This document shows positions 52,645 through 52,755 of a stretch of DNA of 64,000 nt, in pieces; the stretch's first letter is position 1, and each line of letters starts with the position of its first letter. The notes beneath the pieces are model-generated. The model was not told the DNA's origin, searched no databases, and saw only the letters and a program-made list of their open reading frames with translations. Source of the DNA: Escherichia coli (GTDB lineage Bacteria > Pseudomonadota > Gammaproteobacteria > Enterobacterales > Enterobacteriaceae); the NCBI RefSeq assembly GCF_044324875.1, contig NZ_CP172185.1; one strand, given 5' to 3'. A program made the position numbers and the translations under genes.

Positions 52645-52654
52645 GGTCTGAATT

Positions 52655-52736
52655 GCCGGATGCGGCGTGAACGCCTTATCCGACCTACACATCGTCCCGT
52701 AGGCATGATAAGACGCGTCAGCGTCGCATCAGGCAT
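52655..52736. repeat. REP pair (BIME) between kdpE and ybfP
   Basis: gccggatgcggcgtgaacgccttatccgacctac and inverted gtaggcatgataagacgcgtcagcgtcgcatcaggcatgg. Confidence 0.8.
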
Positions 52737-52755
52737 GGCACTCATCGCGATATGT

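Follow-up and report, generated by a model that had tools for sequence, protein, structure and literature searches.

The kdpE-ybfP junction of an Escherichia coli haplotype without speF-potE: a BIME-filled spacer and its relation to empty alleles and to the K-12 layout

REPs of E. coli are imperfect palindromes of about 29-37 nt with a GTAG end that are found outside genes, typically near gene 3' ends; in a BIME, a short linker joins two REPs of inverse orientation, which can form a long hairpin. The REP types y, z1 and z2, as well as y-z2 BIMEs, have been defined previously (PMC8266576). Judging from the reference list of the same paper, binding or processing of REPs and BIMEs has been described for DNA gyrase, IHF, Pol I and TnpA_REP. 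The gene speF belongs to the metabolic genes that are most often pseudogenised in the E. coli pangenome (PMC13322260). For a polymorphic layout of the interval between kdpE and pgm, in which speF may reside, no description was found in the literature.

In E. coli K-12 (MG1655, NC_000913; b0688-b0694), this interval has the order pgm-ybfP-ybfG'-ybfI'-potE-speF-speFL-kdpE, as the first-pass annotation of the DNA studied here had correctly stated. The kdpE stop codon, TGA, is followed by the AT-rich promoter region of speFL, and ybfG is separated from ybfP by a plain hairpin. We have analysed a stretch of 64 kb from another E. coli genome, which is called the window in the following. In K-12, 5149 bp separate the stop codons of kdpE and ybfP; in the window, the distance is 111 bp. 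Common to both are the flanks kdpFABCDE, pgm and seqA, the pgm terminator, a y-z1 BIME, and ybfP together with the motif upstream of it.

The kdpE-ybfP spacer and its REP pair

The features of the interval are listed below, with the basis of the assignment in brackets.

51967-52644, plus strand: kdpE, response regulator, intact (ORF list, tblastn)
52645-52653: 9-nt leader GGTCTGAAT, from the kdpE stop codon to the Y-REP (alignments)
52654-52689, plus strand: Y-type REP, copy 1, left member of a 36-nt direct repeat around the ybfP block (consensus, direct-repeat search)
52690-52699: 10-nt linker CATCGTCCCG joining the GTAG-proximal ends of both REPs (sequence; loop in the predicted hairpin)
52700-52737, minus strand: Z2-type REP, inverse orientation (consensus comparison, pairing with the Y-REP in the RNA fold)
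52738-52755: 18 nt from the Z2-REP to the ybfP stop codon (comparison of ybfP 3' flanks)
52756-53250, minus strand: ybfP, predicted lipoprotein of 164 aa with the lipobox LTAC (ORF list)
53272-53300, plus strand: 29-nt motif M, CAGTTTGTTGGCAAAGTGCTCGTTGTTCA, upstream of ybfP (pattern searches, sequence comparison)
53301-53336, plus strand: Y-type REP, copy 2, which closes the 36-nt direct repeat on the right and opens the resident BIME-1 (consensus, direct-repeat search, alignment to empty alleles)
53337-53400: remainder of BIME-1, a long linker with the motif AAATTCAATATATTG plus an inverted Z1-type REP at about 53371-53400 (alignments)
53411-53440: GC-rich hairpin between an A-run and a T-run (inverted-repeat search; comparison with the potE-pgm spacers of B2 strains and E. 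albertii)
53455-55095, minus strand: pgm, phosphoglucomutase, conserved right flank (tblastn, annotation of collinear genomes)

The kdpE stop codon TAG occupies positions 52642-52644 (sequence inspection and ORF list), and the ybfP stop codon is located at 52756-52758 on the minus strand (ORF list). The spacer between them extends from 52645 to 52755, which substantiates the earlier reading that kdpE, a REP pair and ybfP follow each other directly within about 110 bp and fixes the length at 111 bp. The spacer between ybfP and pgm measures 204 bp. According to tblastn, KdpE of the window and of K-12 are 100% identical, while for YbfP (164 aa) the identity is 93%. With K-12 queries, no tblastn match was obtained for SpeF, PotE, SpeFL or YbfG across the 64-kb window, and ybfI is likewise absent. 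Together with the short spacer, this confirms that speF-potE is missing from the site.

A consensus search identified a Y match with one mismatch at 52655-52688; in the whole window there are five such matches, compared to zero expected by chance from shuffled sequences. GTAG is found at 52699-52702 and its complement at 52685-52688. On either strand, folding joins the two REPs in a single long hairpin (-46 and -47 kcal/mol; z = -3.6 and -3.9). The pair is wholly extragenic: kdpE and ybfP converge on it, and their stop codons lie on either side. The Y-REP and the inverse Z2-REP therefore constitute one y-z2 BIME unit. The arm at 52700-52737 is assigned to type Z2 on reading its sequence against the Z2 consensus. 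The spacer resembles other E. coli BIMEs in its two imperfect palindromes, GTAG ends, inverse orientation, extragenic position and consensus match. It is a lone y-z2 unit of the BIME-2 type and has no unusual property, whereas many BIME-2 loci are tandem arrays. A promoter and terminator scan predicted no intrinsic terminator in the 111-bp spacer, the BIME hairpin being devoid of a U-tract. Between 45 and 60 kb of the window, no Rfam family reached its gathering threshold; to our knowledge, there is no Rfam model for REPs.

The first-pass annotation had also placed REP sequences at the junction of the presumed loss. This holds insofar as the REP pair fills the spacer between kdpE and ybfP. The REPs do not, however, mark breakpoints, since K-12 contains no REPs at the equivalent sites beside kdpE and at the 3' end of ybfP.

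On the other side of ybfP, the motif AAATTCAATATATTG in the linker of BIME-1 resembles an IHF site, in line with descriptions of BIME-1. The segment 53337-53400 is retained both in the empty alleles described below and in the K-12 layout, as seen in alignments. The hairpin at 53411-53440 has the features of a bidirectional terminator after pgm that is common to all haplotypes, and it forms the right-hand boundary of the speF-potE indel.

Additional Y-REP or BIME copies occur in the window at 60716-60819 and 23130-23263, the former being 88% identical to the BIME-1 beside pgm. The y-z1 BIME between ybfP and pgm is itself a target of insertions: in M160133 (L007, 8652-10000) an IS1397 lies inside the Y REP, and in strain 104 (L006, 8764-9222) an IS200C adjoins this BIME. 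The sucB-sucC intergenic region (window positions ~18880-18895) is about 200 bp shorter than in the 99% identical strain 2021CK-01784, a difference that may reflect REP/BIME copy number.

Layouts of the interval among E. coli genomes

In 5426 complete E. coli genomes, the kdpE-pgm interval was found in at least five layouts:

kdpE-speFL-speF-potE-terminator-pgm, without ybfP: 3197 genomes, among them B2 strains, Nissle and ATCC 25922
K-12 layout with the ybfG/ybfI segment: about 1770 genomes
window layout, contiguous kdpE-ybfP-pgm: about 253 genomes
"empty" layout kdpE-BIME-pgm: about 54 genomes, for example the E. coli sources L088 and L089
kdpE-ybfG-ybfP-pgm: 5 genomes

Most E. coli (3197 of 5426) thus have neither the K-12 layout nor ybfP, a gene that is present in 2112 of the genomes. 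The number of about 54 empty intervals was derived from 307 genomes matching the joined pieces, a set that takes in the window type. The speF cassette had no match whatever in 293 of the 5426 genomes, which is close to the ~307 with cassette-less intervals.

The window layout is found with an identical 111-bp spacer in strain 042, the phylogroup D reference, and also in the ST69 strains 118UI and EC6868 (sequence types from PMC8454413 and PMC10840416). Compared to these three strains and about 250 other carriers, the architecture of the window is identical, including the 111-bp y-z2 BIME spacer, and over the 1.6-kb junction the sequence divergence amounts to 0.2-1.7%. The nearest relatives of the window strain, for example 2021CK-01784 (99.0-99.5% identity over more than 40 kb), have the same layout. 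Because all close relatives share it, the absence of speF-potE is a lineage trait, and not the private loss from a K-12-like ancestor that had been implied at first. Among themselves, window-type genomes differ by 1-2% around the junction, and the ybfP of the window is only 93.9% identical to that of K-12. The haplotype is therefore an old, lineage-wide variant, which is present in about 5% of E. coli and typical of phylogroup D.

The same set of genomes bears on the trivial explanation that repeats were collapsed at the REPs during assembly and that speF-potE was dropped. Repetitive REPs can indeed break short-read assemblies. However, the same contiguous structure with matching 111-bp spacers occurs in about 253 independent complete genomes, including 042, so that an artefact of assembly or reading is practically inconceivable.

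Other parts of the window vary as well. Between sucD and cydA (~3150-16650), the gene set differs from that of K-12, which has mngR-mngA-mngB at this place. By collinearity with 2021CK-01784, the window genes encode a LysR regulator, CobO, a class I fumarate hydratase, a dicarboxylate symporter and a methylaspartate ammonia-lyase, and include the glutamate (methylaspartate) mutase genes glmS/glmL/glmE. Between ybfA and ybgA (~42700-43700), there are three small ORFs, one of them an orphan contact-dependent-inhibition immunity gene; K-12 has a 9-kb RhsC element at this position and strain 042 has nothing.

Relation to the empty allele and to the K-12 layout

Empty alleles were aligned from E. 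coli (L088, L089; strains F6326-C1 and TB06051), E. whittamii (L009; Sa2BVA5) and a divergent Escherichia (L008; SCPM-O-B-8794), of which L008 is 93% identical in kdpDE. In multiple alignments, the window is collinear with these alleles, and the sole differences are a 647-bp block and an 11-bp indel. Both types have in common the TAG stop codon, the short leader, a Y REP, the linker of IHF type, the Z1 REP and the presumed terminator. The empty allele lacks the 647-bp Z2-REP/ybfP block and keeps 11 bp, TTCTGTGTTTG, beside the terminator, which have been lost in the window type. The block comprises the linker, the Z2 REP, ybfP and motif M. It is flanked by the two 36-nt Y-REP direct repeats at 52654-52689 and 53301-53336, which are 94% identical and spaced by 647 bp; copy 2 aligns to the sole Y-REP of the empty alleles. 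The window allele thus corresponds to an empty-site allele plus a single block bounded by duplicated Y REPs. The leader GGTCTGAAT is homologous to GGGGCTGAAT of E. whittamii and of the E. coli locus L090, as judged from alignments. The kdpE stop codon is TAG in the empty alleles and in the window-type strains GMF054, O169 Res13 and 2021CK-01784; in L090, likewise of the window type, it is TGA.

Going by these alignments, the simplest reading is that the window allele would be an empty allele into which ybfP was inserted at the Y REP. The polarity of the indel could in principle be the reverse, an empty allele having arisen from a ybfP allele by Y-Y recombination. Against this stands the finding that present-day empty alleles keep the 11 bp that are absent from all window-type alleles. 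A recent Y-Y excision was also considered for O169:H41 strains with and without ybfP and was rejected; because their flanks differ by 3-3.5%, these strains are not close relatives here.

We consider it probable that the window represents an old phylogroup D-associated haplotype composed of an empty Escherichia allele plus the 647-bp insertion. The spacer between kdpE and ybfP would then consist of the left Y-REP and an imported Z2 REP, and would not be a scar of a deletion from K-12.

The gene of this block is an orphan. No Pfam or NCBIfam family was found for ybfP, and a search for YbfP homologues returned almost exclusively E. coli sequences. The gene occurs at 2118 places in 2112 genomes, once per genome, always on the chromosome and never on a plasmid; at the loci inspected, it is always located between kdpE (or ybfG) and pgm. 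Given this single location, the lack of plasmid copies and the lack of a transposase in the block, ybfP does not qualify as a mobile element or cassette. The window ybfP is 95.6-95.8% identical to K-12-type alleles other than that of K-12 itself. Pattern searches detected motif M only in ybfP-bearing haplotypes. A metagenome contig (L091) that is ~90-91% identical to the window has the layout kdpE-BIME-ybfP-BIME and encodes a YbfP with 79% identity, so the window layout exists outside typical E. coli. This divergent, Escherichia-like contig (1221 bp over its whole length) contains a tandem duplication of a 75-nt kdpE 3' end plus the y-z2 BIME upstream of ybfP, which is a second, independent duplication of a kdpE 3' fragment at the locus.

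The first such duplication is found in the K-12 layout, where the pseudogene ybfI is a copy of the last ~145 nt of kdpE with ~90-92% identity. A diverged second copy of motif M and a REP head lie between the potE terminator and ybfI. The ybfI duplicate with its preceding M copy is located at 6722-6904 of the K-12 locus L001, and also at 7043-7227 of L007. The K-12 interval can be written as kdpE-[speF cassette]-T'-M'-Yhead / kdpE'-ybfG-ybfP-M-Y and looks like two alternative kdpE-pgm alleles that might have been joined in tandem. Because of the duplicated kdpE 3' end and the second M copy, the K-12 layout is taken as a derived mosaic. It may have formed by a Campbell-type integration or by duplication plus replacement. 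Furthermore, the loop of the K-12 potE terminator resembles that of E. albertii and not that of the E. coli majority type.

These comparisons bear on the explanation implied by the first-pass annotation, namely a recent, lineage-private deletion of ~5.1 kb from speFL to ybfG, starting from a K-12-like order and mediated or healed by REPs. Relative to K-12, the window simply lacks the 5149 bp between the stop codons, ybfP and its upstream BIME-1 are common to both layouts, and REPs are known substrates for rearrangements. When the junction is aligned to K-12, however, homology stops with the kdpE stop codon on one side and about 10 nt beyond the ybfP stop codon on the other; reading from kdpE, the 3' flank of ybfP is homologous to the K-12 type only within the last ~10 nt before that stop. 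Between these ends lies unrelated REP DNA, and REPs are present at neither K-12 breakpoint. Moreover, the junction is orthologous to the empty alleles of other Escherichia species, ybfP has diverged from that of K-12 by 6%, and about 250 genomes with an internal diversity of 1-2% carry the window layout. Neither the junction nor ybfP thus has the properties of a deletion derivative of the K-12 layout. In the documented recent losses from this layout, recombination took place at the kdpE/ybfI repeat and ybfG was retained. The layout kdpE-ybfG-ybfP-pgm, with an intact ybfG (DUF2625), is found in rare genomes such as CUWW10 (L092) and GF4-3 (L093). In CUWW10 (L092, 2501-4487), a kdpDE that is 100% K-12-like passes straight into ybfG at the kdpE/ybfI repeat; given this identity, CUWW10 is a case of recent speFL-speF-potE loss by recombination between kdpE and ybfI. 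For the window, a recent deletion from a K-12-like order is very improbable.

Species-representative genomes were scanned with KdpE as an anchor, which yielded 80 loci. Because E. fergusonii, E. marmotae, E. ruysiae and Salmonella are not among these 80 loci, the deduced ancestral state of Escherichia rests on few taxa. At 29 loci, among them those of E. albertii, several Citrobacter, Enterobacter, Kluyvera, Lelliottia, Leclercia and Atlantibacter, speFL-speF-potE fills precisely the gap from kdpE to the pgm terminator. At 35 loci, kdpE adjoins pgm, for instance in E. whittamii, in L008, in other Citrobacter, Enterobacter and Klebsiella, and in all Pantoea; 9 loci contain something else and 7 could not be assigned. 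Neither ybfP nor ybfG was detected at any of the 80 loci.

The 35 loci with adjacent kdpE and pgm raise the alternative that the lineage of this allele never possessed speF-potE. The cassette-less interval would then be the primitive state of Enterobacterales, either retained or re-imported, and the cassette an insertion. In accordance with this idea, only a terminator separates the two genes in Pantoea, some Serratia, Dickeya and many Citrobacter, Enterobacter and Klebsiella, and both E. whittamii and L008 lack the cassette. On the other hand, the cassette occupies the very same position in E. albertii, most E. coli, Citrobacter, Enterobacter, Kluyvera, Lelliottia and others. Its identity tracks the divergence of the species: the K-12 cassette is 87.6% identical to that of E. 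albertii and 81% identical to that of C. sedlakii. Because of this parallel, the cassette was probably inherited vertically from before the genus Escherichia, which implies a secondary loss in the empty lineage. The empty alleles of Escherichia also carry a BIME of the E. coli type and not the minimal, terminator-only spacer of the distant genera. Ancestral absence is therefore unlikely in our view.

For the preferred origin from an empty allele, we infer the following order of events. In the ancestor of Escherichia, the speF cassette would have separated kdpE from the pgm terminator, as it does in E. albertii, Citrobacter, Enterobacter and Kluyvera. A single old loss would have generated the empty allele, which gained a BIME and persisted or was spread by recombination. 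Later, ybfP would have been inserted at the Y REP. The K-12 layout would have arisen later still as a mosaic, in which a ybfG-ybfP allele was linked again with a divergent speF-potE cassette and ybfI was left behind.

Alleles of the interval differ considerably in sequence. Among E. coli (L001, L004, L006 and L007 among those compared), the speF-potE alleles are 92-96% identical, compared to 96-98% for the flanks, which suggests introgressed or long-maintained alleles. For example, speF-potE of B2 strains and of M160133 are 92.3% identical; the divergence of 4-8% among these alleles clearly exceeds the 2-4% measured for kdpD and pgm on either side. The final ~300 nt of kdpE (52345-52644) in the window, and likewise in GMF054, deviate by 6-8% from every other E. 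coli allele examined, those of other carriers of the layout included. All of these differences are synonymous, and the protein is identical to K-12 KdpE. A close donor was not found among ybfI, E. whittamii and E. albertii. The divergent 3' end looks like ordinary allele mosaicism, that is, a synonymous recombination mosaic.

A more far-reaching proposal regards the kdpE-pgm interval as a trans-species polymorphism that has persisted in Escherichia for a long time. Alternative cassettes (speFL-speF-potE; ybfP; ybfG-ybfP; none) would owe their persistence to niche-dependent selection acting on acid and polyamine traits, and REPs and BIMEs would serve as recombination substrate. The gene ybfP would have been captured by integration at a Y REP, with the 36-nt Y-REP duplication as its trace, and the recurrent duplicates of the kdpE 3' end (ybfI in K-12; 75 nt in L091) would be footprints of the same REP-associated process. 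We assign a low probability to this proposal.

Implications for polyamine metabolism and for kdpE expression

Judging from the genes sought in the 64-kb window, a window-type strain should lack the decarboxylase that is inducible by low pH and ornithine, as well as the putrescine/ornithine antiporter. Putrescine is also produced by SpeC and by SpeA/SpeB. With SpeF and PotE missing, these routes would therefore have to supply putrescine (for the pathways, see also PMC6307189).

The predicted fold suggests that the BIME should provide the convergent kdp and ybfP mRNAs with a stable 3' hairpin. REPs that follow a stop codon by less than 16 nt were reported to reduce translation of the gene that precedes them (Liang, Rudd and Deutscher 2015, summarised in PMC12306157). 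The REP stem of the window begins 9 nt past the kdpE stop codon and belongs to this class; by analogy, it may dampen the translation of KdpE. Any such effect would be specific for the haplotype, because kdpE of the K-12 type and of the B2 type has no downstream REP.

The absence of speF-potE bears on biotyping by ornithine decarboxylase, on mild-acid tolerance, on putrescine export and on metabolic models that are based on K-12. The lineages concerned are those of phylogroup D, such as ST69 and strain 042. The gene order of K-12 should not be treated as ancestral; at this locus, K-12 represents the most derived, mosaic state. The window itself exemplifies an ordinary, old polymorphism in gene content at a recombination-prone convergent intergenic site, which is unsurprising in the light of E. 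coli genome dynamics.
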